DNA from: Clostridia bacterium
GTDB lineage: Bacteria > Bacillota > Clostridia > Oscillospirales > RGIG5554
Reading direction: 5' to 3'
Length of the DNA: 64,000 bases
Assembly: GCA_017507855.1 (NCBI GenBank)
Contig: JAFWAE010000026.1
Coordinates: forward strand, 146,991-210,990
Both the position numbers and the translations under genes were made by a program. The notes under the pieces were generated by a model that saw only the letters and a program-made list of their open reading frames with translations, was not told the DNA's origin and did not search any database. Below, one piece after another: positions 9,730 through 64,000 of the stretch (position 1 is the stretch's first letter; each line of letters starts with the position of its first letter).

Positions 9730-9732
9730 GGA

Positions 9733-20657: not shown

Positions 20658-21012
20658 GCGAGAAAGCAAGATGGGCAGTTGCGTGCGGCGGATCCGAAAG
20701 GTGCCGTATGAGGAAAGTCCGGGCTTCGCAGGGCAGGATAGTGGGTAACGCCCACCGAAGGCGACTTCAGGGACAGTGCAACAGAGAGATACCGCCGCGC
20801 TTCGGCGCGGTAAGGGTGGAAAGGCGAGGTAAGAGCTCACCGACCCTTCGGGTGACCGCGGGGTCCTGTAAACCCTATCCGAAGCAACACCGCATACGGG
20901 GGAGGCTTGCCCGGCCGTTGATCCCAAGGGTGGCGCGAGCACCTCGGCAACGGGGTGCCAAGACAGATGATTGCCGACCACAAAACCCGGCTTACAGTCT
21001 TGCTTTCTCTCA
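20658..21012 (+). ncRNA. rnpB: RNase P RNA (bacterial M1 RNA)
   Basis: Universal signatures GAGGAAAGTCCGGGC (near 20711), CAGTGCAACAGAGAG, GGTAAGGGTGAAA-like GGTAAGGGTGGAAAGG, and ACAAAACCCGGCTTACAG near the 3' end. The P1 helix pairs GAGAAAGCAAG (20660-20670) with CTTGCTTTCTC (20999-21009). Confidence 0.92.
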
Positions 21013-23462: not shown

Positions 23463-23526
23463 TTTGTATTAGTAAGGAATGCGCATTCTAAAAGTGCGTT
23501 CCGCAAAGAAAGGAAATCGGATCTTT

Positions 23527-26557: not shown

Positions 26558-26723
26558 GGCGCTAAAGACAGGATAAATTTGCAAAAAACACAGAATTTTT
26601 TTCTTTTTTTTAGGTGTTATTCTTTACAAATGGCATTTTTTTTGGTATTCTTATATGGTTGTAGAGGTAAAAAAGCCTGTATACGCTGAAATTTTGTTAC
26701 ACAAAACAAGGAGTGATTCCAAG

Positions 26724-27917
26724 ATGAGTCGCATGGTCGGTACTGTTTCCAGAGGGATCCGAGCTCCCATTATCCGCAGAGGGGACGACCTGGCTGCCAT
26801 CGTGACCGATTCTGTTTTGGCTGCTGCCGCCGATGACGGGTTTGAGATCCGCGATCGGGATATTGTGGCTATGACGGAGGCTATCGTGGCCCGTGCCCAA
26901 GGCAACTATGCCACGGTGGATGATATTGCCAAGGACGTTCACGCCAAATTCGGCGGCGAAGAGGTGGGTGTCATCTTCCCCATCCTCAGCCGTAACCGCT
27001 TTGCCATTTGCCTGCGCGGCATTGCCAAGGGGGCAAAGAAGGTCGTGCTGATGCTCAGCTATCCCTCCGACGAGGTGGGCAACCATCTGCTGAGCTTGGA
27101 TGCGCTGGACGAAAAGGGGATCGACCCCTATAAGGACGTGCTTGATTTAAAGACCTACCGCGCTCTGTTCGGCTACGAAAAGCATCGCTTTACCGGCGTG
27201 GATTACGTGGAATATTACGAATCCCTGATCCGTGAAAGCGGCGCCGATTGCGAGATCGTGTTTGCCAACGATCCCCGCGCGGTGCTGGCCTATACCAAAA
27301 ACGTGCTGTGCTGTGACATCCACACCCGTGCGCGCACCAAGCGCTTGCTGAAGGCGGCAGGTGCGGCCAAGGTGTTCGGTTTGGACGAGATCCTCACCGC
27401 GCCTGTGGACGGGAGCGGCTATAATGAAAGCTATGGCCTGCTGGGCAGTAACAAGGCCACGGAGGAGCAGGTCAAGCTCTTCCCCCGTGATTGCCAAACG
27501 CTGGTGGAGGATATCCAAGACCGTCTGCTGCAGCGTACGGGCAAGCACGTGGAGGTCATGGTATACGGCGACGGCGCCTTTAAGGATCCCGTGGGAAAGA
27601 TCTGGGAATTGGCCGACCCCGTGGTGGCTCCCGCTTACACCTCCGGGCTGGAGGGGACGCCCAACGAGCTGAAACTGAAATACCTGGCCGATAACGATTT
27701 TGCTCATCTTTCGGGCGATGCGCTGAAGGAAGCCATTAAAGAGCAGATCCACAAGAAGGATGGGGATCTGGTGGGCAATATGGCCTCCGAAGGCACCACG
27801 CCTCGCCGCCTGACCGACCTGATCGGTTCCCTTTGCGATCTGACCTCCGGCTCCGGCGACAAAGGCACCCCCATCGTATATATTCAAGGCTATTTTGACA
27901 ACTACACCGCTGAATAA
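26724..27917 (+). CDS. CofE-like protein (F420-0:gamma-glutamyl ligase family, PF01996-type), standalone
   Basis: MSRMVGTVSRGIRAPIIRRGDDLAAIVTDSVL...IRDRDIVAMTEAIVARAQGNY fits the CofE N-terminal pattern (P.I..GDDL....I.DGD.L..T.KIVSKAEG). AAGGAG lies upstream of ATG 26724. About 397 aa, longer than canonical CofE. Confidence 0.7.
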   Translation: MSRMVGTVSRGIRAPIIRRGDDLAAIVTDSVLAAAADDGFEIRDRDIVAMTEAIVARAQGNYATVDDIAKDVHAKFGGEEVGVIFPILSRNRFAICLRGIAKGAKKVVLMLSYPSDEVGNHLLSLDALDEKGIDPYKDVLDLKTYRALFGYEKHRFTGVDYVEYYESLIRESGADCEIVFANDPRAVLAYTKNVLCCDIHTRARTKRLLKAAGAAKVFGLDEILTAPVDGSGYNESYGLLGSNKATEEQVKLFPRDCQTLVEDIQDRLLQRTGKHVEVMVYGDGAFKDPVGKIWELADPVVAPAYTSGLEGTPNELKLKYLADNDFAHLSGDALKEAIKEQIHKKDGDLVGNMASEGTTPRRLTDLIGSLCDLTSGSGDKGTPIVYIQGYFDNYTAE

Positions 27918-27932
27918 AACGCCTGCTCCAAG

Positions 27933-27960
27933 CACCCGTCAAAAGACGGGTGTTTTTTTC
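27933..27960 (+). terminator. rho-independent terminator
   Basis: CACCCGTC-AAAA-GACGGGTG followed by a long T run. Confidence 0.85.
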
Positions 27961-27980
27961 TTTTTTTTTCGCTTTTTATC

Positions 27981-28009
27981 TTGCCAAACGGGCAATTTTT
28001 CTGTACAAT
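27981..28009 (+). promoter_or_regulatory. candidate sigma-A promoter for hisH-hisF and downstream genes
   Basis: TTGCCA, 17-nt spacer, TACAAT. Confidence 0.55.
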
Positions 28010-28031
28010 GTGAGGCAAAGGAAGTGTGTAC

Positions 28032-28637
28032 ATGATCGCAATTGTGGATTACGGTGCGGGAAATTTGGCCAACGTCAGCCGCGCCTTGGAATTTTTGGGT
28101 GCACAGGCCGTGGTGACCTCTGACGCGGGGGTCATTCGCGAGGCTGAGCGGGTGCTTTTGCCCGGGGTGGGCGCTTTCGGAGACGCCATGGAGAGCTTGC
28201 GCCGTAAGGGCCTGGAGCAGGTGCTTTGCCAAGCAGCGGAAGAAAAACCGTTTTTGGGAATCTGTTTGGGCCTTCAGCTGCTGTTTGAGGAATCGGAGGA
28301 AAGCCCCGGGGTCAGCGGTCTGGGCGTGCTGAAGGGATCGGTGCGTCGCTTCCGTTTGGAAGGGCTAAAGGTGCCTCACATGGGCTGGAATACCCTGCAG
28401 GTCTTGCAAAAGGAAGGGGTCTTTGCCCATTTGGAGGAACAGAAAAGCGTGTATTTCGTGCATTCCTACTACGTTTGTCCCGAGGAGCCCGTGGCAGCCA
28501 CTCGGACCGAATACGGCATTCCCTTCGTCTCTGCGGTGCAGAAGGGGCAGTTGGCGGCCATGCAGTTTCACCCCGAAAAAAGCGGTACGGTGGGGCTGGG
28601 CCTGCTGAAGGCTTTTATTGACGGAAGGGAGGCATAA
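28032..28637 (+). CDS. hisH: imidazole glycerol phosphate synthase, glutamine amidotransferase subunit
   Basis: MIAIVDYGAGNLANVSRALEFLG...LLPGVGAFGDAM...FLGICLGLQLL...MGWN...FVHSY...MQFHPEKS. ATG 28032 follows AAGGAAG. Confidence 0.92.
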   Translation: MIAIVDYGAGNLANVSRALEFLGAQAVVTSDAGVIREAERVLLPGVGAFGDAMESLRRKGLEQVLCQAAEEKPFLGICLGLQLLFEESEESPGVSGLGVLKGSVRRFRLEGLKVPHMGWNTLQVLQKEGVFAHLEEQKSVYFVHSYYVCPEEPVAATRTEYGIPFVSAVQKGQLAAMQFHPEKSGTVGLGLLKAFIDGREA

Positions 28638-28640
28638 CGG

Positions 28641-29402
28641 ATGCTGGCTAAGAGAATCATTCCCTGCCTGGATATTGACCACGGCCGCGTAGTTAAGGGT
28701 GTGCGCTTTGTGAACATCCGCGATGCGGGCGACCCTGTGGAAGTGGCGGCCATGTACGACCGCGCCGGGGCGGACGAGCTGGTGTTTCTGGATATTACCG
28801 CCTCCTCCGAAAGCCGCAGTATTGCCCTGCAAACGGTGGAAGCCGTGGCCAAGCAGGTGTTTTTGCCCCTGACGGTGGGCGGTGGTGTGCGCACGGTGGA
28901 GGATTTTCGCATGCTGTTGCGCGCGGGTGCGGACAAAGTATCCGTGAATTCTTCGGCGGTGAAGAACCCCCAGTTAATCGCTGATGCGGCGAAGATCTTC
29001 GGCAGTCAGTGCGTGGTGGTAGCCATTGACGCCAAGCGCCGTGCCGACGGTACGGGCAGTGAGGTGTACCTCAACGGCGGCCGTGTGGCCACGGGGATCG
29101 ACGCGGTGGAATGGGCCAAGCAGGCCGAACGTCTGGGCGCGGGCGAAATTTTGCTGACCTCCATGGATACCGACGGGGAAAAGAAGGGCTACGACCTTCC
29201 CTTGACCCGTGCGGTAGGGGAAGCGGTGGGCATTCCCGTGATCGCCTCGGGCGGGGCGGGAAGCATGGAGGATTTTGCCCAAGTGCTCACCCACGGAAAG
29301 GCCGATGCGGCTTTGGCGGCCAGCCTGTTCCATTACAAAGAAATGGAGATCGGGGACCTGAAGCGCTATTTGCACGAGCAGGGGATCCCCGTGCGACTGT
29401 AA
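28641..29402 (+). CDS. hisF: imidazole glycerol phosphate synthase, cyclase subunit
   Basis: [23 protein letters not shown]...GDPVE.A..Y...[13 protein letters not shown]...TVGGGVR...GADKVSVNS...VVVAIDAK...[11 protein letters not shown]...PVIASGGAG. Confidence 0.95.
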
Positions 29403-29472
29403 GCCTGTTTAACGAAGAAAAAAGCGGCTGTGGGCCGCCATATATAAAAAACGACCTGAAGGAGGCATTTTC

Positions 29473-30873
29473 ATGGACATTAAACCCCGTATCGGGCGCT
29501 ACACGGTGTACGCCAGCGACTATCTGAAGCAAGACAGCGATGTGATGCTGGGCGGCGGCACGGACGAGACCGAGCTGCTGCAAGCCATTTTGGACAAGGC
29601 CGAGGAATGGGGCGGCCTGGTTTTGGAGGTGGACGGCGCCATCCTCATGCGGGGCATGCGCCTGCATTCCAACACCACCATTCATTGTGCCAATCAAAAC
29701 TGCGGCTTTTATTTGGCCGACGACACCAACGACGCCATCGTGCAGAACGCCCATTTGGACTACGACGTGATCCGCGACGAGAACATCCAACTGCTGGGCG
29801 GTACGTATAACATCAACTGCGAGCACCAGCAACGCAGCAAGGAGCCTCTGCCTCCGGGGGACGGAAAATACGGCAAGGAACAAAGCCGCTTTGAGGGAGC
29901 CCATTATTTGCACGGCCTGCGCTTTATCGGCGTGCGGGGACTGACTTTGCGGGATATGCGTACCGTGGACCAGCGCGTATGGGATGCGGTGTTCTGTAAC
30001 TGGGAGCATATCGTCATCGAGAATTTTGCCGTGGAGCTGCCTCATAATTACGTGGCGCAGAACCAGGACGGCCTCCATTTTTGGGGCCCCGGGCGCGACC
30101 TGTTTATCCACAACATCCGCGGTGGCTCAGGGGACGATTTCATTGCCCTGGCGCCCGACGAGCACGACCGCTGCTCCGACATTACCGACGTGCTTATTGA
30201 CGGCGTGTATTTGGAAAATGCGGATCAGGGCATCCGTATGCTGTCCCGCGGGCCGGGTAAGCTGGACCGCGTGACCGTGCGCAACGTGTACGGCACCTAT
30301 AAAAGCTGTGGCTTTTTCATCAACCCTTGGTTCGGCAAATGGTGCGATGACAGCGACGGCAATTACGGTGCCATTACCGTAGAAAATGTGCAGTTGCGCC
30401 AGACCTACCATAAGTACAAAGACTATTGCCGCCCCTTCCTGTTCCGTATCGGCGGGCGTATTCAAAGCCTGACGCTGAAGAACATTCAGGCCATCGAGCC
30501 CAACGATGCCCGCGAGCTGGTAGACATCAGCCATATTTACAGCGGTGACGCTGTAAAGGACAATTTCGTGGACATTGCCAACCTGACGGTGGACGGGCTG
30601 GAGGTCCTCAACCGCGAGGGGACGACGGACCCTGTGGATTACATTGCCGTGGACAGCAAGGTGGACCATTTGACGGTGCGCAACGTGCTGATCAACCGTG
30701 ACGGAAACCCTGCGGCGGATACGGTGGTGCACGTCAAGCCCGGGGCCAAGGTGGGCACGCTGGATCTGTCCGGCGTACAGGCCTACGGCATTGAGGCGGG
30801 TGTGAAAAACGAGGGCGATGTGAGCGTGTTGCGCCGCCACTGTGTCTACGTGAACGATCAGGAAGAAAAATAA
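29473..30873 (+). CDS. signal-less right-handed beta-helix protein, GH28-like (paralogue 1 of 3)
   Basis: 466 aa with no signal peptide. N-terminal pectate-lyase-3-like opening (GGGTDETELLQAILDKAEEWGGLVLEVDGAILM). Acidic motifs AQNQDGLHFWG and GGSGDDFIALAP resemble the GH28 NTD / G-DD motifs. ADQGIRMLS resembles RIK. GGAGG RBS is present. Confidence 0.75.
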   Translation: MDIKPRIGRYTVYASDYLKQDSDVMLGGGTDETELLQAILDKAEEWGGLVLEVDGAILMRGMRLHSNTTIHCANQNCGFYLADDTNDAIVQNAHLDYDVIRDENIQLLGGTYNINCEHQQRSKEPLPPGDGKYGKEQSRFEGAHYLHGLRFIGVRGLTLRDMRTVDQRVWDAVFCNWEHIVIENFAVELPHNYVAQNQDGLHFWGPGRDLFIHNIRGGSGDDFIALAPDEHDRCSDITDVLIDGVYLENADQGIRMLSRGPGKLDRVTVRNVYGTYKSCGFFINPWFGKWCDDSDGNYGAITVENVQLRQTYHKYKDYCRPFLFRIGGRIQSLTLKNIQAIEPNDARELVDISHIYSGDAVKDNFVDIANLTVDGLEVLNREGTTDPVDYIAVDSKVDHLTVRNVLINRDGNPAADTVVHVKPGAKVGTLDLSGVQAYGIEAGVKNEGDVSVLRRHCVYVNDQEEK

Positions 30874-30886
30874 GGGAGGCATTTCA

Positions 30887-32275
30887 ATGGAGATCAAACC
30901 CCGTATCGGGCGCTACACGGTGTACGCCTGCGACTACCTGAAGCAGGACAGCGATGTCATGAAGGGTGGCGGCACGGATGAGACCGAGCTGTTGCAGGCC
31001 ATTTTGGACAAGGCTGAGGAATGGGGAGGCTTGACCTTGGAGGTGGACGGCGCCATTTTGACTCGCGGCATGGCCATTCATTCCAACACCACCATCCATT
31101 GCGCCAACCAAAATTGCGGTTTCTTTTTGAAGGACGGCGCGGCCCAGCCTTTGGCACGAAACGCGCATTTAAGTTATTTGAACATCCACGACGAAAATAT
31201 TTCTCTGCTTGGCGGCACGTATAACCTGAACAGCCCCGGGCAAGATCGTGCCGAAGTGCCCGTGATCCCCACGGAAGGAGAGGAAAACCTTTTGTCCGCT
31301 TGGCTGATGGGTATTAAGTTTTTGGGTGTGCGCGGCCTGACCATGCGGGATATGCGCCTGGTCAACCAACGCACCTTTGCGGGTCTTTTTGCCAACTGGG
31401 AGCATATCGTCATCGAAAACTTTGCCATTGATCTGCTCGACGAACGGGACGCCCAAAACCAGGACGGCCTCCATTTCTGGGGCCCCGGGCGTGACCTGTC
31501 CATTCGCAATATCCGCGGAGGATCGGGGGACGACTTCATGGCCCTGGCGCCCGACGAGCACGATTTCAAGTCCGACATTACGGATGTACTCATCGACGGA
31601 GTATATTTGGAAAATGCCGACCAAGGGATCCGCATGCTGTCCCGTGGGCCGGGCAAGCTGGACCGCGTGACCGTGCGCAACGTGTACGGCACTTACAAGA
31701 GCTGTGGCTTTTTCATCAATCCCGCCTTCGGTAAGGGTCTGGGAGATTGCGAGGGCAATTATGGCTCTATTACCCTGGAAAACATTCAACTGCGCCAAAC
31801 CTACCATAAATACGCCCAGCACGCCCACGCCTTTTTGTTCCGCATCGGCGGCCGCATGCAAAGCCTGACGCTGAAAAACATTCAGGCCATCGAGCCCAAC
31901 GATGCCCGCCCGCTGGTGGATATCAGCCATATCTACGGCCATTGGAGCCGCACGGGAAGCTGTGTGGACATTGCCAACCTGACGGTGGACGGCTTGGAGA
32001 TCCTCAACCGCGAGGGCACCGTTGATCCTGCCGATTACATTTCCGTGGACGGCAAGGTGGACCATTTGACGGTGCGTAATGTGCTGGTCAACCGCGATGG
32101 CCATCCTGCCGCCGACCGCTTGGTGGCAGTGAAGGAGGCAGGTCAGGTGAAGAGCCTGATGATCTCTCAGGTGCAGGCTATGGGGATCGATAGCGTACTG
32201 GATTTGCAGGGCGGTACGGTGGAGCATGTGTACGCCGACCATGTGTTTTTGAATGACTTGGAGGTGTTGGGATGA
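30887..32275 (+). CDS. signal-less beta-helix protein, GH28-like (paralogue 2 of 3)
   Basis: 462 aa, colinear with paralogue 1. It shares a 33-nt identical stretch at the 5' end and a 38-nt identical stretch mid-gene with paralogue 1. The RBS context GGAGGCATTT is duplicated too. Confidence 0.75.
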   Translation: MEIKPRIGRYTVYACDYLKQDSDVMKGGGTDETELLQAILDKAEEWGGLTLEVDGAILTRGMAIHSNTTIHCANQNCGFFLKDGAAQPLARNAHLSYLNIHDENISLLGGTYNLNSPGQDRAEVPVIPTEGEENLLSAWLMGIKFLGVRGLTMRDMRLVNQRTFAGLFANWEHIVIENFAIDLLDERDAQNQDGLHFWGPGRDLSIRNIRGGSGDDFMALAPDEHDFKSDITDVLIDGVYLENADQGIRMLSRGPGKLDRVTVRNVYGTYKSCGFFINPAFGKGLGDCEGNYGSITLENIQLRQTYHKYAQHAHAFLFRIGGRMQSLTLKNIQAIEPNDARPLVDISHIYGHWSRTGSCVDIANLTVDGLEILNREGTVDPADYISVDGKVDHLTVRNVLVNRDGHPAADRLVAVKEAGQVKSLMISQVQAMGIDSVLDLQGGTVEHVYADHVFLNDLEVLG

Positions 32276-33636
32276 AATCCATTCTTCCTTCCTGCGGACG
32301 CTTTACCGTCCGCGCAAGCGATTACCTGAAGCAAGACAGCGACGTGATGCTGGGCGGCGGCACGGATGAGACCGAGCTGCTGCAGGCCATTCTGGACAAG
32401 GCACTTGAATGGGGAGGCCTTCATCTGATCGTGGACGGCGCCGTGCTGGTGCGCGGGCTGACCCTGCATTCCAACACCACCGTTGAATGCACCGATCAAA
32501 GCTGCGGCTTCTTTTTGAAGGACGGCGCGGCCAAGCCCTTGGTGAGCAACGCCAAGCTGAGTTATTCCCACATTCATACGGAAAACATTCGCCTGCTGGG
32601 AGGAACCTACAACCTCAACAGCCCCGGGCAGGAGAGAATGGAGAACGATCCCCCCGTCATCGAAGGGGATACGGACAAGCCCTTCAACTGGCTCATGGGC
32701 GTAAAATTCATCGGCGTGCGAAATCTGACTATGCGGGATATGCGTTTGGTCAACCAACGCACCTTCGCGGGTCTTTTTGCCAACTGGGAGCACGTGGTGG
32801 TGGAGAATTTCGCCATTGATCTGCCCGACAACCGCTTTGCCCAAAATCAGGACGGCCTTCATTTCTGGGGTCCCGGACGTGACCTTTGTATTCGCAATAT
32901 CCGAGGTGGCTCGGGGGACGATTTCATGGCCCTGGCTCCCGATGAGCACGATCTCAAGTCCGACATTACGGATGTGGTTATAGACGGGGTGTATTTGGAA
33001 GATGCGGATCAGGGGATCCGTATGCTCTCCCGCGGGCCGGGGCGGCTGGATCGCGTATTTATTCGCAACGTGTACGGCACTTACAAGAGCTGTGGCTTTT
33101 TCATCAATCCTTGGTTCGGTAAGGGCTACGGCGACAGCAAAGGCAATTACGGTGCCATTACCGTGGAAAATGTGAATCTGCAGCAGACCTACGATAAATA
33201 CGGCGATTTTTGCGATGCTTTTCTTTTCCGCATCGGCGGACGTATTCAAAGCTTAACGCTGAAGAACATTCAAACGGTGGATCCCAACGATGCCAGACCT
33301 TTGGTGGACGTCAGTCATGTGTACGGGAGCCGCATTCTGTCCGGCAACTTTACTCATGTGTCCAACCTGACAATAGACGGGCTGGAGGTGGTCAACCATC
33401 GCGGTACCAAAAAGAAGAACGCCTATATCAAGGTGGACACCCGCGTGGATAATCTGGTGGTGCGTAACGTGACCGTGGACCGAAGCGGGAATGAAAATGA
33501 CGATACCCTCATCCGCTTGACGGAGGAAGCACAGGTAGATGCTTTGACTGTGCGGGGTGTGCTGACCCGAGGAATTGGCAAAACGTTGGAGGGAAAGGCC
33601 AATCACACTCTTATTGAAGGGGAACTAAAGCTCTGA
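32272..33636 (+). CDS. signal-less beta-helix protein, GH28-like (paralogue 3 of 3)
   Basis: 454 aa. ATGA overlap with paralogue 2. Same conserved blocks, and a 47-nt stretch identical to paralogue 2 (CGCAACGTGTACGGCACTTACAAGAGCTGTGGCTTTTTCATCAATCC). Confidence 0.75.
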   Translation: MKSILPSCGRFTVRASDYLKQDSDVMLGGGTDETELLQAILDKALEWGGLHLIVDGAVLVRGLTLHSNTTVECTDQSCGFFLKDGAAKPLVSNAKLSYSHIHTENIRLLGGTYNLNSPGQERMENDPPVIEGDTDKPFNWLMGVKFIGVRNLTMRDMRLVNQRTFAGLFANWEHVVVENFAIDLPDNRFAQNQDGLHFWGPGRDLCIRNIRGGSGDDFMALAPDEHDLKSDITDVVIDGVYLEDADQGIRMLSRGPGRLDRVFIRNVYGTYKSCGFFINPWFGKGYGDSKGNYGAITVENVNLQQTYDKYGDFCDAFLFRIGGRIQSLTLKNIQTVDPNDARPLVDVSHVYGSRILSGNFTHVSNLTIDGLEVVNHRGTKKKNAYIKVDTRVDNLVVRNVTVDRSGNENDDTLIRLTEEAQVDALTVRGVLTRGIGKTLEGKANHTLIEGELKL

Positions 33637-33640
33637 ACAG

Positions 33641-33680
33641 ACACCCGACGAAAGATTTTGCTTTCGTCGGGTGTTTTTTG
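33641..33680 (+). terminator. strong rho-independent terminator ending the hisHF/beta-helix unit
   Basis: ACACCCGACGAAAG-loop-CTTTCGTCGGGTGT (14 bp) followed by TTTTT. Confidence 0.85.
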
Positions 33681-33773
33681 TGGACGACGGGGCTTGTTTT
33701 TTGCCTTGACATTTGGTATAATAATCAAATACAATAGGTAAAATCTTTTTTCGCAAGAAAACGAGGGATGGTT

Positions 33774-39635: not shown

Positions 39636-39829
39636 ATTGTGGCATGAGCAGATATGCGATGAAGTGGGAGGTGGCTGCCCTCTGAGGCAGGGAATTTCCA
39701 CGGAGTATGTCCGATTTGAAACCGGGCGACAAAAAAACCGAACATCAACCTCTGGCGGTTGATGGCGCTTTCGGAGCCGAGTCCCTTTGTGGATTTACCC
39801 TTCGAGTCGTTTCTTTGTGTTGTCAATAT

Positions 39830-50290: not shown

Positions 50291-50303
50291 CGGGGGAAAC
50301 GGC

Positions 50304-51694: not shown

Positions 51695-51996
51695 GTATCC
51701 AAGCTGGCGACATTGTGGTTTCCGCCGCCGGGCACGACAAGGGACAGCGCTTTTTGGTGCTGGAGGTCCTGGAAGAACGGGCCGTGTTGGTGGACGGAAA
51801 AAGCCGTAGAACAGAAAAACCGAAGCTGAAAAATTTAAAACATCTGATTCCGGAAGGTCGCGTGCCGGCGGAAACCATGGCCGGGATGTCTGCCGAAAGG
51901 CCGACGAACGCCTGGGTACGCAAGGTGCTGGCAAAGACCTTCGCAACCGATACAACGGAAGCTAAGGGGGAATTCACTTGCCAAAAGACGATGTAG
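51691..51996 (+). CDS. KOW-domain RNA-binding protein (conserved Clostridial gene between map and infA)
   Basis: [26 protein letters not shown]...[23 protein letters not shown] overlap with map. Confidence 0.8.
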
Positions 51997-52196
51997 TGGA
52001 ATTTGAAGGCGTAGTGGTAGAAGCACTGCCCAACGCCGTATTCAAGGTCAAACTGCCCAGTGGGTATATTGTGACAGCGCATATCTCCGGAAAACTCCGG
52101 CAGAATTTTATCAAGATCCTTGTCGGCGATAAGGTCACGGTGGAAGTTTCCACCTACGACCCCACCAAAGGCCGGATCACATGGCGCGTCAAATAG
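51978..52196 (+). CDS. infA: translation initiation factor IF-1
   Basis: TTG start after [54 protein letters not shown]. Confidence 0.96.
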
Positions 52197-55600: not shown

Positions 55601-55690
55601 ATACTGTACCGATAAAGGGGAATGGTGTGAGTGTTTCCCTTTGAAAAAATCGGGTGTTTTGAACTTCTTTGTAAAACGGAGGAAAACCGC

Positions 55691-58597
55691 ATGAAGACAC
55701 ACAACGTTCTTCGCAAAGCGCTGATGGTCGTGGCCGTCGTGGCTTTGGCTGCTTCTATGGCATTGGGAGCGGCTGCAGCAAGGGTGGACGAAAATATCTT
55801 GGTATCCACCACTTACAACGACTACTACACTCAGCTGCTTAAAGCAGGCGCCAAGGATGCGACCAAGACCGCATCGGTGGACGTGATGGCTTATCTGCCC
55901 GATCAGACAACGGCAGAGGTCAAGACCATGACCGAAGGCGGCAAGACCGGCTTGTGGACCGGTGACAATGGCATGGTGGCCTTTAAGGTCAACGTGCCCC
56001 AGACCGGTTTCTACAATCTGCAGCTGACCTACTACCCCGTAGAGGGCAAGGGCAGCTCCATCGAGCGTATGCTGTATATCGACGGCGTGATCCCCTTTAA
56101 GGATGCACGTTATCTGTCCTTCTCCCGTGTGTTTAAGTACAACATTGAGAAGGTAGAGCACAGCCTGCTGTCCGCTGTGGATCGCCAGCTGTTCAAAAAA
56201 GATACTTCCGGCAATGAGATCCGTGCCGAGATCGTGGAAGCTCCCATGTGGATGAGCAAAATGCTCACCGACGATGTGGGGTATTATTCCAGCGCCCTGC
56301 GTTTCTATCTAACTGAGGGCGAGCACGTCCTGAGTTTCAGCTCCGTGCGTGAGCCTATGCTCATCGGCGGCATCGAGCTGTTCATTGAAGACGCCGTGCC
56401 CTCTTACGCCGACGTGAAGGAAGGCTACGATAAAAAGGGCTATGCTGCTGCGGATGGCGGCGAAGTGACCATTCAGGCAGAGAACCCCACCCTGATCTCT
56501 TCCATCACCTTGTACCCCGTGTACGACAAATCTTCGGCTAACTCACAGCCTCAGCATATCACCCAGATCCGTTTGAACTCCGTGGGCGGCAGCAAGTGGC
56601 AGCTCAACGGCGAATGGATGGAGTGGGAAGTGGACGTTCCTGCCGACGGTCTGTATCAGATCGTGCCCCGTGCCAGACAGAACGTCTATTCCGGTATGTT
56701 TGCTTCTCGCCGCATTTACATCGACGGCAAGATTCCCTTTGAGGAAGCTAAAAACCTTCGTTTTGCATATACCTCCGGCTGGCAGACCAATCCCCTGGGC
56801 AATGCAGACGGCGCTTACGCCTTCTACCTGACCGAGGGCACCCACGTCATCCGCATGGAAGCGGTGCTGGGCGATATGGCTGACCTGCTGCGTCGGGTAG
56901 AGGCCTCGCTGACGGCTTTGAACGGCGTGTACCGTCAGATCCTGATGATCACCGGCCCCAACCCCGACTTGAACCGCGACTACTCCTTCCGTTCTTCCAT
57001 TCCGGATGCGGTGGGTGAACTGGGCAAGCAGTCCAAGGAGCTGTACGAGATCTCCGCTTTGCTGGAAGAGATCACCGGCGAGAAGGGCGAATATTCCGTT
57101 CTGCTGGATAAGATCGCTTTCCAGACCGAGCAGATGAACTACGACGCCAACGACATTGCCAAGAACTTTACCTCCTTTAAGACCAACCTGGGCTCCCTGG
57201 GCACGTGGATCATGACGGCTCAGTATCAGCCCTTGGAGCTGGACTGCGTGACGTTGCAGCCCTACGGCGCTGAAACGCCTCAGGCCGAGCCCGGCTTCTT
57301 CAGAAGCCTTTGGTTCGAGATCCAGAGCTTCTTTGCTTCCTTCTTCTTTGACTACACCACCGTTGGCTCCACGTTGGATGCCGATTCCGGTGACCGCGTG
57401 GTCATCAAGGTTTGGAACGCCACCGGCCGCGACCAGGCCCAGATCATTCGTGAAATGATCGATAACGACTTTACCCCCAATACCAACATCGGCGTGGACT
57501 TCAGCCTGGTAGCCGCCGGCTCCCTGTTGCCTGCCACCTGCGCCGGTATCGGCCCCGATGTGAATATGTTCTCCGCCTCTTCGGATGCGGTCAACTACGC
57601 ACTGCGTTCCGCCGTGTTGGATATTTCCGGTATGCCCGGCTTCGACGAAGTGGCTTCCCGCTTCCACGAATCTGCCATGGTGCCGCTGACCTTTAACGGC
57701 GCTGTGTACGGCCTGCCCGAGCAGGAATCCTTCCCCATGATGTTCTACCGCAAGGACATCTTTGCCGAGCTGGGCATTGAGCCTCCTCAGACTTGGGAAG
57801 ACCTGTACGAGCTGGTGCCCCTGTTCCAGCAGAAGAAGATGGAGATCGGCTTCCTGGGCGAGGGCGGCATGCTGACCTTCCTGTATCAGTACGGCGGTGA
57901 ATTCTACCGTAACGGTGAAGGCTACGATTACCCCCGTTTCACCAATATCGATTCCGAAGAATACATCAACGCATTCGAGACCGTTTGCGAAATGTACACC
58001 ACCTATAAGTTCCCCTTGGCGTACGACTTTGCCAACCGTTTCCGTACCGGTGAGCTGCCCCTGGCTTTTGCAGACTACACCGTGTATAACAACCTGATCG
58101 TATTTGCCACCGAGCTTCGCGGCTTGTGGGAGTTCCTGCCCATTCCCGGTACCTTGATGGAAGACGGCACGATCAACCGAGCCACCTCCGCCACCGTGAC
58201 CACCGTCATGATGATGCGCGGCGCCGATCGCAGCGAGGAAGTGAAGCTGGGCGCTTGGGAGTTCATGAAATGGTGGACCAGCGCTCCCGTGCAGAGCACC
58301 TACGGCGTGGAATTGGAAGCCATCATGGGTCAGGCTGCCAAGTATCCCACCGCTAACCTGGAAGCCCTGGCCAATCTGCCTTGGTCTGCCGATGAATACA
58401 CGGCTCTGTCCCAGCAGTTCCAGGAGCTGGTCGGTACTCCCGAGGTTCCCGGTAACTACATCGTGACCCGTGATATCAGCTTTGCGTACAAGCGCGTGGT
58501 TACCCAGGGCGACAACCCTGCGGAAGCCCTGCTGGACTACGTAAAGGATATTAACGACGAGTTGGCCCGTAAACGTAAAGAGTTCGGGTTGGATTGA
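55691..58597 (+). CDS. very large extracellular solute-binding protein (family 1 type) with two N-terminal CBM-like modules
   Basis: Start is MKTHNVLRKALMVVAVVALAASMALGAAAA (signal/anchor, no lipobox Cys), with a GGAGG RBS. There are two internally similar modules: FKVNVPQTGFYNLQLTYYP...IERMLYIDGVIPFKDARYLSF and WEVDVPADGLYQIVPRARQ...SRRIYIDGKIPFEEAKNLRF. The C-terminal ~400 aa are SBP-like (VIKVWNATGRDQAQ..., FYRKDIFAELGIEPPQTWEDL). Confidence 0.85.
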   Translation: MKTHNVLRKALMVVAVVALAASMALGAAAARVDENILVSTTYNDYYTQLLKAGAKDATKTASVDVMAYLPDQTTAEVKTMTEGGKTGLWTGDNGMVAFKVNVPQTGFYNLQLTYYPVEGKGSSIERMLYIDGVIPFKDARYLSFSRVFKYNIEKVEHSLLSAVDRQLFKKDTSGNEIRAEIVEAPMWMSKMLTDDVGYYSSALRFYLTEGEHVLSFSSVREPMLIGGIELFIEDAVPSYADVKEGYDKKGYAAADGGEVTIQAENPTLISSITLYPVYDKSSANSQPQHITQIRLNSVGGSKWQLNGEWMEWEVDVPADGLYQIVPRARQNVYSGMFASRRIYIDGKIPFEEAKNLRFAYTSGWQTNPLGNADGAYAFYLTEGTHVIRMEAVLGDMADLLRRVEASLTALNGVYRQILMITGPNPDLNRDYSFRSSIPDAVGELGKQSKELYEISALLEEITGEKGEYSVLLDKIAFQTEQMNYDANDIAKNFTSFKTNLGSLGTWIMTAQYQPLELDCVTLQPYGAETPQAEPGFFRSLWFEIQSFFASFFFDYTTVGSTLDADSGDRVVIKVWNATGRDQAQIIREMIDNDFTPNTNIGVDFSLVAAGSLLPATCAGIGPDVNMFSASSDAVNYALRSAVLDISGMPGFDEVASRFHESAMVPLTFNGAVYGLPEQESFPMMFYRKDIFAELGIEPPQTWEDLYELVPLFQQKKMEIGFLGEGGMLTFLYQYGGEFYRNGEGYDYPRFTNIDSEEYINAFETVCEMYTTYKFPLAYDFANRFRTGELPLAFADYTVYNNLIVFATELRGLWEFLPIPGTLMEDGTINRATSATVTTVMMMRGADRSEEVKLGAWEFMKWWTSAPVQSTYGVELEAIMGQAAKYPTANLEALANLPWSADEYTALSQQFQELVGTPEVPGNYIVTRDISFAYKRVVTQGDNPAEALLDYVKDINDELARKRKEFGLD

Positions 58598-58627
58598 TTT
58601 TACTGAAGACGAGGGAGATGAAATTAT

Positions 58628-59572
58628 ATGGCTAAAGAACCCGTCAATGCGGTCAAAGAGCGCGCGGATTGGACCAAGCGCGATTGGCGCCGCTATGAAA
58701 TGAAAAAGAACAAGGTTGCCTATCTTTTCGTGGCTCCGTATATGATCCTCTTTACGGTGTTTACGGTGGCACCCGTTGTACTGTCCTTCTTGCTCAGCTT
58801 TACCTCATTTAACATGCTTGAGTGGCCCAAAATGGTGTGGCTGGACAACTACCTGCGCCTGTTCCTGGCAGACGATATCTTCTTGACGTCTGTGAAGAAC
58901 ACATTCCTCTTCGCGGTGATCACAGGCCCTGCTTCCTACCTGCTGTGCCTGTTCTTCGCCTGGTTTATCAACGAATTGACCCCCAAGATCCGTTCCTTCG
59001 TGACGTTGATCTTTTACGCACCTGCCATTGCCGGTAACGTGTACCTGATCTGGGGTATCCTCTTCTCGGGCGACTCCTACGGTTACGTCAACGGTTGGCT
59101 GCTGAAAATGGGCCTCATTTCCGAGCCCATCCTGTTCTTCCAGAACGTTAACTACATTTTCCCGCTGATCATCATGGTGGCCCTGTGGACCTCCCTGGGT
59201 ACCTCCTTCCTGACCTTTATCGCCGGTTTCCAGAACGTGGACCGTACGTATTACGAGGCCGGTGCGGTGGACGGCGTGAAAAACCGTTGGCAGGAGCTGT
59301 GGTTCGTGACCCTTCCTTTGATGAAAAACCAGATGCTGTTGAGCGCCGTGCTGGCTATCACCGGTGCTTTCGGCTTCGGCGCCATTATCGACGCCATGGT
59401 TGGGTTCCCGTCTCCTGACTACTGCGTACACACCATGGTACACCATCTGAATGACTACGGTAACCTGCGTATGGAGCTGGGCTATGCCTCCGCCATCGCC
59501 ACGCTGCTGTTCCTGATGATGATCGGCTCCAACTTCCTGGTGCGCAATCTGCTGAAGAGGGTGGGTAAGTAA
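58628..59572 (+). CDS. carbohydrate ABC transporter permease (MalF/CUT1-like)
   Basis: 314 aa, six hydrophobic segments. EAA-loop-like sequence YEAGAVDGVKNRWQELWFVTLPLM. Confidence 0.9.
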   Translation: MAKEPVNAVKERADWTKRDWRRYEMKKNKVAYLFVAPYMILFTVFTVAPVVLSFLLSFTSFNMLEWPKMVWLDNYLRLFLADDIFLTSVKNTFLFAVITGPASYLLCLFFAWFINELTPKIRSFVTLIFYAPAIAGNVYLIWGILFSGDSYGYVNGWLLKMGLISEPILFFQNVNYIFPLIIMVALWTSLGTSFLTFIAGFQNVDRTYYEAGAVDGVKNRWQELWFVTLPLMKNQMLLSAVLAITGAFGFGAIIDAMVGFPSPDYCVHTMVHHLNDYGNLRMELGYASAIATLLFLMMIGSNFLVRNLLKRVGK

Positions 59573-59573
59573 C

Positions 59574-60443
59574 ATGAAAAAATTTAAGATCAAAAAGATG
59601 CGCGCGCTGAACCGTTCTTACGGCGGCGACGTGGGCATCAACGTTTTCCTTCTCATCGTCGGCGCATTCATGGCCTTGCCCTTCGTATACGCCATCTGCA
59701 GTGCTTTGAAGCCCTTGGACGAGTTGTGGTATTTCCCGCCTCGCTTCTTCGTGGAAAACCCCACGCTGAAAAACTTTACCGAGCTGTTCCGCTTGATGTC
59801 CACCTCTTGGGTGCCCTTCTCCCGTTACATCTTCAACACGGTGTTCATCTCCGTGGTAGGTACGGGCGGTCACGTGCTGGTGGCTTCGCTGGCAGCTTAC
59901 GCCCTTTCCAAAATGAAGTTCCCCGGCCGCAACTTTATGTTTAAGGCTGTGGAATACTCCCTGATGTACAACGCGGTGGCTGCCGGTATCGCCATTTTCA
60001 TCATCCTGTCCGCTTTGGGCTGGATCGATACCTACCTGGCCATCATCATCCCCACCTTGGCCGGTTCTTTGGGTCTGTTCCTGATGAAGCAGTTTATGGA
60101 CTCCAACGTACCCGACCAGATCCTGGAAGCCGCTCATATCGACGGCGCAGGCGAATTCCGCATTTGGTGGCAGATCGCCATGCCCCTGGTAAAGCCCGCT
60201 TGGCTGACGCTGATCATCCTGATGTTCCAAAGCCTGTGGCAGACCGGTGCTTCCATCTACATCCAAAGCGAAGAGCTGAAGACCTTCTCCTATGCCATCA
60301 GCCAGGTATTGGCCGGCGGTATCGTGCGTACGGGTGCTGCTTCCGCTTCCACAGTGATCATGATGAGCGTGCCGATCCTGGTGTTCGTGCTGTCTCAGTC
60401 CAACGTTATTGAGACCATGGCCACTTCCGGCATGAAAGATTAA
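59574..60443 (+). CDS. carbohydrate ABC transporter permease (MalG/CUT1-like)
   Basis: 289 aa. EAA-loop sequence LEAAHIDGAGEFRIWWQIAMPLVKPA. Confidence 0.9.
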   Translation: MKKFKIKKMRALNRSYGGDVGINVFLLIVGAFMALPFVYAICSALKPLDELWYFPPRFFVENPTLKNFTELFRLMSTSWVPFSRYIFNTVFISVVGTGGHVLVASLAAYALSKMKFPGRNFMFKAVEYSLMYNAVAAGIAIFIILSALGWIDTYLAIIIPTLAGSLGLFLMKQFMDSNVPDQILEAAHIDGAGEFRIWWQIAMPLVKPAWLTLIILMFQSLWQTGASIYIQSEELKTFSYAISQVLAGGIVRTGAASASTVIMMSVPILVFVLSQSNVIETMATSGMKD

Positions 60444-60459
60444 GGGGGAAATGAGAAAA

Positions 60460-63198
60460 ATGAAAAACACCCTTATCAAGATCCTGGTGCTCACCTTGGC
60501 GTTGCTCATGGCCATCGGGCCGTTGACTGCCAGCGCCGACGCACCCTATATCACCTATATCTACGGCTACGGCCAGCAGGCGCTGGAATCTCCTCACGCC
60601 TACGTGCCCTATAAGATCTACGAATCCGCAAAAATGGAATACGGCGCCCTGAAGGATGCCCAGGACCTTTATGTGGATAAAAACACCAACTACGTCTACA
60701 TTGCCGATACGGGCAACAACCGTATCGTCTGCTTGGACGAAAACTTTAACCTGCGTTTTGTGCTGGATTGGTTCTTTAGTGATATGACCATTCCCGTAAC
60801 CGCAGAAGACGGCATCTACGAGGTGGATGAAAACGGCCAGCTGCAGTACCCCATCGGGGAAGACGGCAACGGCTACTACATCTACAACGACGAGGGTCAC
60901 GCTTACGTGATCCGCGATGCCGAAGGCAACCGTATGTTCATCGAAGGTTTTGTGCTGGAAGTGAACGTGGAAGCCTTGGAAGAGCTGTGGGCCAGCAAAA
61001 ATATCGACATTACCCAGCAGCTGGAGGACCGCTTGAAGGAAGCTTACGACAGCGCCCTGAGCGAGGCCATCCAGGATGCGGCCAATGCCGGTAACGACTT
61101 CGACGAGGAAGCCTTTGAGCTGAACGAAGAAGAAAAGGCTCTGGTCCGCCAGACCCTGATCATCGAGCACCTGGAAGAGGATGAGGTTCCCTACGACAAG
61201 GTCCCCACCACCTTCTATCCCGAAGACAGCAAGGGCCGTGTATTGCCCTTGGGTACTTGTGCGACCGAAGTGCCTCAGGACTTTATCGACACCTATATGC
61301 CCGGCTGGCAGGTTGGCGACAAGCCCCAGCCCGTGATTGAAAAAGAAGATCAGCGTCCTGTGGTCATGCAGTATGTGGACGGCTTTAACAAGCCCCAGGG
61401 TCTGTTCGTTTGGGACAACGGTGACATCTACGTGGCTGACACCGAAAATATGCGTTTGGTCGTCTTCGATAAGGAAGGCAACTTCAAGCGCATCATCCAG
61501 GCTCCCGAATCCGATATTTTCCCCGCCCAGTTCACCTACAAGCCCAAGGCCTTGGCGGTGGACGGCGCCGGCCGTTTGTACGTGGTCGCTTCCTCTGCAA
61601 ACTGGGGTATCCTTTCCATGACGCCTGACGGCGAATTTGAAAGCTTCCTGGGTGCCCAGAAGGTGCGTCCCCGTCTGTTTGACCTGTTTACCCAGCTGTT
61701 TATGTCCGAAAAGAAGCGCCGTCTGCTGGTTAAAACGGTGCCTACGGAATACAACAACATCACCATTGATGAGGGCGGCTTTATGTACGCCACCATCTCC
61801 TCCATTGCCGACTATACTCAGCAGGCTTACATTTGGGCCCGCGATAAGAGCGGCGACTATTCTCCCGTTAAGAAGCTGAGCCCCTCCGGTGTGGACGTGA
61901 TGAAGCGCTTCGGCTCCTGGCCCCCCTCCGGTGAGGTGGACGTGGAAATGGGCAGCGCGTACGTGTACGGCTCCAGCAAGTTCGGTGCCTCCACCATCGT
62001 GGACGTGGCTCTGGGCCCCAACGACACCTGGTCCATCCTTGACCAGAAGCGTTCCCGCGTATTTACCTACGACGAGGAAGGCCGTTGCCTGTTCATCTTC
62101 GGTTGCCCCGGTAACCAGTTCGGTAACTTCAGCAAGGCTACCGCCATGGCCTATCAGGGCGAGCTGATCGTGGTGCTGGATGCCGGCAACCAGAGCATTA
62201 CCACCTTTAAGCGTACCGAGTACGGCGATGCCATCGTGCAGGCCATTACTCTGCACGCCGAACGTAAGTATGACGAGTCCGTGGCCTACTGGCAGGATAT
62301 TCTGAAGAGAAACACCAACTTCGAGATCGCCTACGTAGGTATCGGTAAGTCCCTGCTTCGTAAGGAGCAGAACAAGGAAGCCATGGAGCAGTTCAAGCAG
62401 GCTTTCGATACCGAAAACTACTCCAAGGCCTTTAAGGCATACCGTAAAGAGGTCATTGAAAAGTACATTCTGCTGATTCCCGTGGCTGCGGTGCTGATCT
62501 ACTTCGCTTTGAAGGCCTTCAGCAAGCACGTGACCAAGGTGAACCTGAAAGGGCAGAAGGAGATCCGCAAGAGGACTTTGTGGGAAGAGCTGATGTACGG
62601 CTTCCACATTATCGTCCATCCCTTTGACGGTTTCTGGGATATGAAGCACGAAAAACGCGGCGGCGTGCGCGGTGCGACCGTGTACATTCTGCTGACGGTG
62701 CTGACCTTCGTGTTCCAAAGCGTGGGCAAGGGCTACATCTTCGATCCCTATGCTGCGTATTCCGACGTCAGCATCTTCTCCAGCGTGGCTACCATTGCTT
62801 TGCCCGTGTTGCTGTGGTGTACGGCTAACTGGGCCTTGACCACTTTGTTTGACGGTGAAGGTAGCTTTAAGGATATCTACATGGCCACCGGCTACTCCCT
62901 GGTACCCCTGATCATGTTCCTGATCCCCTGGACCATCGCTTCGAACTTTATCACCTTGGAAGAAGCTTCTCTGCTGAACTTCTTCTCCACCCTGGCTTAC
63001 GTATGGACCGGCTTGCTGCTGTTCCTGGGCTCCATGGTGGTACACGACTATTCCTTCGGTAAGAACATCTTGACCGTGATCGGTTCTATTGCCGGTATGG
63101 GTGTGGTGATCTTCTTGGTCAGCCTGTTTATGAACCTGACCACCCAGATCTACAACTTCATCCGCAGTATCGTCAACGAGATCACCTACCGAATGTAG
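60460..63198 (+). CDS. secreted NHL-repeat beta-propeller / TPR-like / C-terminal Yip1-family membrane domain fusion protein
   Basis: Signal peptide MKNTLIKILVLTLALLMAIGPLTASA. NHL-like blades: VYIADTGNNRIVCLDENFNL, IYVADTENMRLVVFDKEGNF, LYVVASSANWGILSMTPDGEF and VVLDAGNQSITTFKRT. A helical repeat follows (ESVAYWQDILKRNTNFEIAYVGIGKSLLRKEQNKEAMEQFKQAF). Then HPFDGFWDMKHEKRG plus five hydrophobic helices, typical of bacterial Yip1 proteins. The alternative in-frame ATG at 60451 lies only 2 nt from the RBS. Confidence 0.8.
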   Translation: MKNTLIKILVLTLALLMAIGPLTASADAPYITYIYGYGQQALESPHAYVPYKIYESAKMEYGALKDAQDLYVDKNTNYVYIADTGNNRIVCLDENFNLRFVLDWFFSDMTIPVTAEDGIYEVDENGQLQYPIGEDGNGYYIYNDEGHAYVIRDAEGNRMFIEGFVLEVNVEALEELWASKNIDITQQLEDRLKEAYDSALSEAIQDAANAGNDFDEEAFELNEEEKALVRQTLIIEHLEEDEVPYDKVPTTFYPEDSKGRVLPLGTCATEVPQDFIDTYMPGWQVGDKPQPVIEKEDQRPVVMQYVDGFNKPQGLFVWDNGDIYVADTENMRLVVFDKEGNFKRIIQAPESDIFPAQFTYKPKALAVDGAGRLYVVASSANWGILSMTPDGEFESFLGAQKVRPRLFDLFTQLFMSEKKRRLLVKTVPTEYNNITIDEGGFMYATISSIADYTQQAYIWARDKSGDYSPVKKLSPSGVDVMKRFGSWPPSGEVDVEMGSAYVYGSSKFGASTIVDVALGPNDTWSILDQKRSRVFTYDEEGRCLFIFGCPGNQFGNFSKATAMAYQGELIVVLDAGNQSITTFKRTEYGDAIVQAITLHAERKYDESVAYWQDILKRNTNFEIAYVGIGKSLLRKEQNKEAMEQFKQAFDTENYSKAFKAYRKEVIEKYILLIPVAAVLIYFALKAFSKHVTKVNLKGQKEIRKRTLWEELMYGFHIIVHPFDGFWDMKHEKRGGVRGATVYILLTVLTFVFQSVGKGYIFDPYAAYSDVSIFSSVATIALPVLLWCTANWALTTLFDGEGSFKDIYMATGYSLVPLIMFLIPWTIASNFITLEEASLLNFFSTLAYVWTGLLLFLGSMVVHDYSFGKNILTVIGSIAGMGVVIFLVSLFMNLTTQIYNFIRSIVNEITYRM

Positions 63199-63220
63199 CA
63201 GAGGAAAGGAGATGAATCTG

Positions 63221-64000
63221 ATGAAAATGCGCAAATTGATTGCTCTGACCTTGGCTTTGACCATGCTGGCCGGCGCCTTTGGCGTGGCCGCTTCGGCAGA
63301 CGACTCGGCAGTGGCGGAAACCCCTGCGGCTACTCAGGATGCGCCCGCTGCTACGGTGGAGCCCCCTGTTACCCAGGAGCCCGTTGAGGAAGAGCCTGCA
63401 ACTCCTTCCATCGATCTGTCCCAGATCACGCCCGACCAGCCTGAAACGGGTGAGGCCTCCTCTTATCAGCATATGACTTATGAGTCTGAAGAGCATAAGC
63501 TGGCCACCATGACCAAAATGATGTCCAACGACCGCTACGACTTCTACATCCATTTGCAGAACGGCGACGTTGCCGTGGTGGACAAGGTTTCCGGCCAACG
63601 CTGGTTCTCCACTCCCTACGACTACAATACCGGCTCCACTTCCAAGGACGTGAAGGCCCGTATGCTGTCCCAGCTGGTCATCAAGTACTACGATAACATT
63701 AACCAAAAGACCCTGTACAGCTTTTCCGAGGCTGCCCAGAAGAATCAGATCAAGATCTTTTCGGTGAGCACCGGCGTGCGTGTGGAATACACCTTTGGCC
63801 GTGCGGAACAGCGCTTGCTGCTGCCCATCCGCATTCCCAAGGAAAGCATGGAGGAAAACATCCTCAGCAAGCTGGATGCTAAGGCCGCCAAAGCCTTTAA
63901 AAACGCTTACAAACTGTACGATCTGAGCACCGTGACCAACGAAAAGGTGCGTGAGGAGTACGAAAAAACCTACGGTATTACCGAGGACAACCCCCTCTAC
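63221..64000 (+). CDS. secreted protein, probably DUF5696-like (N-terminal part; runs off the window end)
   Basis: Hand translation: MKMRKLIALTLALTMLAGAFGVAASADDSAVAETPAATQ...HKLATMTKMMSNDRYDFYIHLQNGDVAVVDKVSGQRWFSTPYDYN... Signal peptide is present, with AAGGAG 9 nt upstream. It is open to the window edge. The family assignment comes from my memory of the conserved neighbourhood and is unverified. Confidence 0.7.
   Translation, partial: MKMRKLIALTLALTMLAGAFGVAASADDSAVAETPAATQDAPAATVEPPVTQEPVEEEPATPSIDLSQITPDQPETGEASSYQHMTYESEEHKLATMTKMMSNDRYDFYIHLQNGDVAVVDKVSGQRWFSTPYDYNTGSTSKDVKARMLSQLVIKYYDNINQKTLYSFSEAAQKNQIKIFSVSTGVRVEYTFGRAEQRLLLPIRIPKESMEENILSKLDAKAAKAFKNAYKLYDLSTVTNEKVREEYEKTYGITEDNPLY

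Follow-up and report, generated by a model that had tools for sequence, protein, structure and literature searches.

The best points of comparison for a hisH-hisF gene pair are the imidazole glycerol phosphate (IGP) synthases of Thermus thermophilus (1ka9) and Thermotoga maritima (1gpw/1thf) on the one hand and, on the other, the paralogues involved in sugar amidation, namely WbuY/WbuZ, the HisH2/HisF2 pair encoded beside wbpG in the O-antigen cluster of Pseudomonas aeruginosa, and AglZ/HisF2. These paralogues belong to the same fold and domain families and are likewise found outside the his operon, and in the systems known to amidate sugars they depend on a WbpG/WbuX-type amidotransferase as a partner. 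Here we analysed a stretch of 64,000 nucleotides from a Clostridia bacterium (contig JAFWAE010000026.1; the whole stretch is called the window in the following), in which a hisH-hisF pair is followed on the same strand by three genes for GH28-like beta-helix proteins, named BH1, BH2 and BH3. We know of no described pairing of IGP synthase with GH28-like proteins, and an earlier note on this DNA had offered two readings, namely that the his genes are simply scattered in this lineage, or that an IGP-synthase-type amidotransferase is functionally tied to a glycan-processing module. In our assessment the locus very probably holds two functionally unrelated gene sets, a housekeeping hisH-hisF pair and the GH28-like genes BH1 to BH3, which are adjacent in this species alone; the first of the two readings has gained support, and the functional tie has not been borne out.

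Reviews describe his genes as organised in operons, sub-operons or scattered regulons (PMC10138114). For Lachnospiraceae and other Eubacteriales, Ashniev et al. (2022) reported that hisH and hisF lie side by side but separately from the main hisZGDB(..IE) operon, and that hisA and hisC are found at other places (PMC9413887, Additional files 2 and 4). Such detached pairs are tabulated for Ruminococcus gnavus, R. torques, Coprococcus, Butyrivibrio crossotus and others, and several of them bear predicted HisR sites (PMC9413887). As for the beta-helix proteins, the closest described enzymes are the GH28 exo-polygalacturonases, as exemplified by YeGH28 of Yersinia enterocolitica (2uve), the exo-polygalacturonase of Thermotoga maritima (3jur) and the galacturonidase 5olp.

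Layout of the locus

The five genes and the elements that flank them are arranged as follows:

27930..27969, + strand: intrinsic terminator 3' of a CofE-like (F420_ligase family) gene; 11-bp stem at 27930-27955, then a T-run
27981..28009, + strand: sigma-70-like promoter-like site 5' of hisH; TTGCCA-17-TACAAT, 10/12 consensus matches
28032..28637, + strand: hisH; 201 residues from the ATG; glutaminase subunit of IGP synthase
28641..29402, + strand: hisF; 253 residues; cyclase subunit of IGP synthase
29403..29472, + strand: intergenic gap between hisF and BH1; 70 nucleotides
29473..30873, + strand: BH1; 466 residues; GH28-like right-handed beta-helix protein, predicted to be cytoplasmic (no signal)
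30887..32275, + strand: BH2; 462 residues; paralogue of BH1 with 70.5% identity
32272..33636, + strand: BH3; 454 residues; paralogue with 65% identity to BH1 and 70% to BH2
33636..33686, + strand: strong intrinsic terminator closing the unit; 19-nucleotide arms (33636-33679), 89% complementary, with a 6-nucleotide loop and a T-run

The upstream terminator has 6 GC pairs in its 11-bp stem and a 4-nucleotide loop, and its long T-run extends to about 27969. For hisH, a GTG at 28026 is a possible start, but the ATG at 28032 is likelier and is the one used by independent gene calls. BH1 and BH2 are separated by 13 nucleotides, and the start of BH3 overlaps the stop of BH2 (ATGA). The layout given in the earlier note, that is, the promoter-like site, hisH, hisF, the 70-nucleotide gap and three same-strand beta-helix genes with a 13-nucleotide gap and an ATGA overlap, agrees with the list of open reading frames (ORFs), and both terminators are present at slightly shifted coordinates, the one before hisH moving from 27933-27960 to 27930-27955 plus T-run and the next strong one, after BH3, from 33641-33680 to 33636-33679.

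Several independently assembled metagenomes contain the same gene arrangement, with DNA identities of 99.97-100%, and it is therefore not an assembly artefact. Two contigs of the same species depart from it in the beta-helix genes. The first (L006) parts from the window within BH1, with identity ending at contig base 1588, which is probably an assembly break. The second (L003), whose bases 3553-4941 correspond to BH2 of the window, differs from the window at 2 bases, and its BH2 is called as two pieces of 427 and 31 residues; the stop that separates them falls on one of the two differing bases, which suggests a nonsense variant that strain variation or a sequencing error could explain. We considered whether the BH genes are decaying in same-species contigs and did not take these two truncations as evidence for it.

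Identity and chromosomal setting of hisH and hisF

Both subunits pass the cut-offs of the equivalog models for IGP synthase, HisH with 233 bits against TIGR01855 (cut-off 105.4) and HisF with 379.8 bits against TIGR00735 (cut-off 294.55), the latter match covering residues 1-252 of 253. In contrast, HisF stays below the cut-offs of the two families that stand for sugar amidation, with 285.5 bits against WbuZ (TIGR03572; cut-off 299.7) and 240.4 bits against AglZ/HisF2 (NF038364; cut-off 310). HisF further aligns end to end with its counterparts from Thermus (1ka9_F, 327 bits) and Thermotoga (about 268 bits), while HisH matches chain 1ka9_H of the Thermus IGP synthase with 146 bits and aligns with Thermotoga HisH too. 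The residues that the earlier note had named as signs of catalytic competence are all in place: the HisH triad consists of Cys78 (within GICLG) together with His180 and Glu182 (within HPE), and HisF carries the catalytic Asp11 (CLD) and Asp130 (AID). The ammonia-gate residues Arg5, Glu46, Lys99 and Glu169 of HisF (Glu169 being Glu167 in T. maritima numbering, offset by a 2-residue insertion), the interface residue Asp98, and the phosphate-binding motifs that were checked in HisH and HisF are present as well. Since the equivalog cut-offs are passed, the sugar-amidation cut-offs are failed and the key residues are present, hisH and hisF are, as judged from their sequences, ordinary housekeeping IGP synthase subunits.

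Compared with the Thermus and Thermotoga enzymes, which both window subunits match over their full length, there is no difference at the protein level, and only the chromosomal context differs in that no hisA, hisB or hisIE lies near the pair. Compared with the sugar-amidation paralogues, what is missing besides the family-level scores is the partner and the setting. The Pfam-labelled genes up to 10 kb to the left and right of the locus include no WbpG/WbuX-type amidotransferase, and neither do the other ORFs surveyed, which represent part of the window's ORFs; there is no surface-polysaccharide cluster nearby. The genes within 10 kb are murD-like, HAD (haloacid dehalogenase) hydrolase, yebC, fba, GxGYxYP-family, CofE-like, metG, tatD, pyk and thiI genes, and the further ORFs surveyed in the window are housekeeping or transporter genes.

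With regard to the remaining his genes, the earlier statement that none occurs within the 64 kb is confirmed by tblastn with seven seeds (HisZ, HisG, HisD, HisC, HisB, HisA and HisIE), which were taken from the complete operon of a relative and labelled by NCBIfam; the sole gene recovered in the window was hisF, to which the HisA seed aligned with 30% identity. That the genes are simply scattered is supported by comparison with 80 hisF loci, one genome per species, mostly from Lachnospiraceae and other Clostridia and with HisF identities of 69-74%, whose flanks were inspected for up to 10 kb as available. In 69 of these 80 loci hisH-hisF stands without any other his gene in the available flanks, and just 11 show a hisZ-hisG-...-hisH-hisA-hisF-hisIE arrangement. 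The two nearest HisF relatives, which are Oscillospiraceae metagenome-assembled genomes retrieved from the protein database (76% identity), again carry hisH-hisF alone. A detached pair away from hisA and hisC is hence the majority arrangement in these Clostridia, as already documented for the Lachnospiraceae (PMC9413887).

What differs is the company of the pair. The next gene after hisF is that for uracil-DNA glycosylase (ung), on the same strand, in 62 of the 80 loci, with a median gap of 23.5 nucleotides (56 measurable pairs), and some of the Lachnospiraceae pairs have predicted HisR operators, whereas the window has BH1 to BH3 in this place and yielded neither a HisR-type site (up to 3 mismatches) nor a T-box. 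The hisH-hisF-ung set (for example at 9384-11459 of locus L010; loci L010-L089) looks like an operon-like three-gene unit whose functional rationale is not obvious. In both 76% relatives, hisF is followed by a gene for a 153-residue protein, a YcxB-family gene and a gltD-like gene.

The earlier note had advised examining gene neighbourhoods in related genomes, and the outcome speaks against a functional tie. Across 82 hisF loci (the 80 species representatives plus the two 76% relatives) no BH homologue was found near hisF, and none of these loci had metG, CofE-like or GxGYxYP genes near hisF. Conversely, neither hisH nor hisF was found near BH homologues in 80 metagenome loci (698 kb) or in five individually retrieved BH contexts, that is, in none of about 85 BH loci. 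Synteny with the window was not found in the 76% relatives. The juxtaposition of hisH-hisF and BH genes is lineage-specific and not conserved elsewhere. In the protein search, HisF identity falls from 95-100% (same species, on short contigs) to at most 77%.

The closest relative on a long contig (L090), whose BH proteins share 65-70% of their residues with BH1 and BH2, has in common only the BH genes with the window. It carries a tandem pair of overlapping, same-strand BH genes directly after argG-argH-argC-argJ-argB-argD-argF, and the 80-nucleotide gap between argF and the first BH gene holds a hairpin followed by a T-run (locus 581-11374). There are hence two cases in which a BH array lies behind an amino-acid biosynthesis operon, namely hisH-hisF in the window and the arg operon in this relative; the pattern is probably a coincidence.

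The beta-helix family and its neighbours

The AlphaFold 2 model of BH1 is a confident right-handed parallel beta-helix (predicted local distance difference test 92, predicted template modelling (TM) score 0.92), and its best Foldseek matches in the PDB are the three GH28 exo-polygalacturonase structures 2uve, 3jur and 5olp (E about 2e-8, TM about 0.5), in line with the GH28-like beta-helix assignment that had been made from the letters. The relation is a distant one. Identity of the BH proteins to these enzymes amounts to only 12-16%, no Pfam family scores above threshold in BH1, and in a scan with the GH28 profile PF00295 BH1 and BH3 gave no match and BH2 16.3 bits, below the gathering score of 22.9. 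Weak PF00295 matches were nevertheless obtained for 34 of 43 members of the BH family (E <= 0.01, best 2.5e-10), and the fold and the aligned NxD and GDD acids are common to BH proteins and GH28 enzymes. In the same 43 sequences N197-Q198-D199, H202 and D221-D222 are invariant, and when the family profile is aligned with the plant polygalacturonases ADPG2 (7b8b) and PGLR (8ikx), NQD (197-199) and GDD (220-222) fall on their nTDGiH and gDDcis motifs. BH2 keeps the motifs NQDGLHF, GDDFMAL and DQGIRMLSRG. Further invariant acidic residues of the family are E230, D232, D239 and D243. Of the two GH28 motifs that bind the uronate substrate, GHG and RIK, the GHG turn is not recognisable and the RIK lysine appears, in a weak alignment, to be replaced by leucine (GIR-L/M-LSR), so that the substrate is probably not plain polygalacturonate.

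BH1, BH2 and BH3 lack a hydrophobic N-terminus, which agrees with their earlier description as signal-less, and no signal-like N-terminus was seen in 116 of 120 BH homologues. Lacking a signal is therefore typical of the family at large, as would suit enzymes that trim imported oligosaccharides in the cytoplasm; the Thermotoga exo-polygalacturonase, too, is presumably signal-less and intracellular. At least 742 homologues were found at E <= 0.001 among the scored candidates, and they derive from Clostridia, Armatimonadota, Paenibacillus and other groups. With a mutual identity of 65-70%, BH1 to BH3 are, to go by sequence comparison, a tandem expansion within this widespread, mostly cytoplasmic and distantly GH28-like family with its NxD plus GDD acid triad. 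They would most likely act as inverting exo-glycosidases that trim oligosaccharides imported by ATP-binding cassette (ABC) transporters. A recent horizontal transfer of the three genes was considered and rejected, given that their GC content and their GC content at third codon positions (0.67-0.76) match those of the flanking housekeeping genes.

Elsewhere, the genes around BH homologues differ from locus to locus, but most of them have to do with carbohydrates: they encode LacI regulators together with sugar ABC systems, esterases of the GDSL and other types, a pectate-lyase-like protein, GH92 enzymes and GFO/IDH/MocA oxidoreductases. A recurrent set comprises a gene for a giant solute-binding protein (SBP_bac_1, about 960-990 residues), two permease genes, an NHL/Yip1 gene and a DUF5696 gene; it adjoins BH homologues in 4 of about 37 independent loci of at least 8 kb (the L098 group, L109, L119 and L120). 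The window contains such a locus as well:

55631..64000, + strand: giant solute-binding-protein locus of the carbohydrate-uptake type; SBP_bac_1 protein (988 residues), two ABC permeases, NHL/Yip1 protein (915 residues) and the start of a DUF5696-like gene (Pfam)

This region is collinear with the cluster of L098-L100, which immediately follows a BH homologue and a LacI gene, with amino-acid identities of 46, 56, 61, 42 and 32%. In the window it lies 22 kb downstream of BH3, past metG-tatD-pyk-thiI and the ribosomal-protein operons. Although the association is modest, we regard this ABC/NHL-Yip1/DUF5696 locus as a candidate importer or partner of BH1 to BH3, and as a better candidate for such a partner than hisH-hisF.

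Further features of the window are:

20663-21010, + strand: RNase P RNA, class A; 268 bits (Rfam)
23479-26511, + strand: putative glycoside hydrolase of the GxGYxYP family; 1010 residues; lipoprotein-type N-terminus (..LSLGAC..) and C-terminal immunoglobulin-like region
26655-27917, + strand: CofE-like protein of the F420_ligase family (PF01996); 420 residues; residues 34-412 match the 218-position profile
39651-39732, + strand: S10-Clostridia ribosomal-protein leader (Rfam)

The GxGYxYP protein, a secreted and glycan-active protein by its features, is encoded two genes upstream of hisH. The CofE-like protein scores far below the NCBIfam CofE cut-offs, and the span of its Pfam match relative to the length of the profile implies that it carries large insertions. 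The S10 leader is followed by ribosomal-protein operons, which include secY, adk, map and rpoA (48995-54802).

Transcription and competing explanations

Two strong terminators bracket the five genes, one good promoter-like site lies in front of them and nothing separates them in between, so that hisH to BH3 may well be co-transcribed from the hisH promoter by read-through. The gap between hisF and BH1 holds a 6-bp GC hairpin (29424-29439) that is preceded by an A-run and lacks a T-run behind it, and its folding (minimum free energy -14 kcal/mol, z = -0.17 against shuffles) is no better than that of shuffled sequence. A strong GGAGG Shine-Dalgarno sequence stands ahead of BH1 (29461-29465), and no promoter-like match with at least 9/12 of the -35/-10 consensus exists on the + strand between 28009 and 30536. 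The earlier description of the gap as free of a hairpin plus T-run and of an obvious -35/-10 is thus correct. On the minus strand only, the GC hairpin (29423-29439) is terminator-like, with a T-run following it there, and no minus-strand gene ends at it; it may have been left behind by a former gene order, or else be a bidirectional terminator that has degenerated.

A histidine-specific regulation upstream of hisH was considered and rejected. The Rfam scan at gathering thresholds found no T-box or other leader there and returned only the RNase P RNA and the S10 leader for the whole window, and nowhere in the 64 kb is the Firmicutes HisR consensus cacTTTAnnnnnnTAAAgtg matched with 3 mismatches or fewer. 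A palindrome, TTGCC-AAACG-GGCAA (27981-27995), overlaps the -35 element of the hisH promoter-like site. Such a TTGCC-N5-GGCAA palindrome could be a candidate operator, and it is unlike the published HisR consensus.

Whatever the extent of the transcript, co-transcription would carry little weight here because hisF is equally tightly followed by the unrelated ung in most relatives. It is also conceivable that BH1 to BH3 form a transcription unit of their own, transcribed from a promoter that escaped recognition, be it within the 3' end of hisF or within the 70-nucleotide gap, and are not co-expressed with hisH-hisF at all. The TATATA and TATAAA elements located 25-30 nucleotides before the BH1 start would suit this idea, the GC hairpin could serve as a weak or processing site, and the BH pair of L090 seems insulated from its arg operon by a hairpin and T-run and must be expressed otherwise. 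Yet the stretch from 28009 to 30536 yielded no -35/-10 match at the threshold applied, the hairpin has no T-run downstream and shuffled versions of the gap fold just as well, so that we treat a separate unit as a real but doubtful option.

The idea that HisH and HisF deliver ammonia to an uncharacterised glycan-processing pathway inside the cell, one that includes the three beta-helix proteins, draws on the tight same-strand spacing between two terminators behind one promoter-like site, with neither a terminator nor a promoter in the gap, and on the precedent of HisH/HisF paralogues in sugar amidation (NCBIfam WbuZ and AglZ/HisF2). We nevertheless regard it as highly improbable. HisF lies below the cut-offs of precisely these two families and well above that of housekeeping hisF, a WbpG/WbuX-type gene is absent from the genes and ORFs surveyed, and the BH proteins resemble hydrolases with a GH28-type acid triad and not ammonia acceptors. 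Moreover, the adjacency recurs at no other hisF locus and at no other BH locus, and in relatives hisF is linked just as tightly to ung or other unrelated genes. A variant confined to this lineage, in which the hisH promoter drives a five-gene transcript and a genuine IGP synthase, through regulatory or physical recruitment, works with three cytoplasmic GH28-like proteins, appears just as far-fetched to us; if it were true, the recruited enzyme might supply ammonia or an AICAR-linked control (AICAR, 5-aminoimidazole-4-carboxamide ribonucleotide) to an intracellular glycan-modifying step. One could also imagine that the organism is a histidine auxotroph and that hisH-hisF is left over or re-purposed, for instance for AICAR production or for delivering ammonia to another acceptor. 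Auxotrophy for amino acids is found in many gut Clostridia, and the 64 kb hold no further his gene. However, HisH and HisF are intact, highly conserved proteins in which all of the catalytic, gate and phosphate-binding motifs examined are in place, HisF sequences from independent samples are identical or 95% identical, and Lachnospiraceae with the same detached pair have the remaining his genes elsewhere in the genome (PMC9413887), which makes auxotrophy an unlikely explanation, if slightly less so than the two preceding ones.

Several points weigh against two unrelated gene sets, the reading that we prefer. No intrinsic terminator or recognisable promoter separates hisF from BH1, so that all five genes may well share a transcript, and this is what usually first points to a functional link. 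The absence of the adjacency was observed in fairly distant relatives, with a gap in HisF identity from 95% to 77%, and both the his-gene complement and the copy number of hisH-hisF were judged from the 64-kb window. Lastly, the partnership of the BH proteins with the transporter is drawn from 4 of about 37 independent loci, and the substrate class of the BH proteins is a prediction.

If hisH-hisF and BH1 to BH3 are indeed unrelated, HisH would hydrolyse glutamine, and the ammonia released would travel through the HisF barrel to phosphoribulosyl-formimino-AICAR ribonucleotide (PRFAR), which would be converted to IGP and AICAR for histidine biosynthesis. Among these Clostridia the two genes as a rule stand apart from the other his genes and often head small operons shared with unrelated genes, and any read-through from hisH-hisF into the BH genes would be a chromosomal accident and not the sign of a shared pathway. 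BH1 to BH3 would trim imported oligosaccharides in the cytoplasm, with the giant solute-binding-protein ABC locus as candidate importer.

Overall, the outcome for the proposed link is a negative one: the close packing of same-strand genes next to a detached hisH-hisF pair is no evidence for a new amidotransferase-glycan pathway. In these Clostridia the pair picks up unrelated downstream genes, be it ung, ycxB-type genes or, as here, genes for glycosidases. As a modest by-product, the recurrence of the BH family beside the giant solute-binding-protein/NHL-Yip1/DUF5696 cluster offers a concrete starting point for finding out what the enzymes and the transporter act on.

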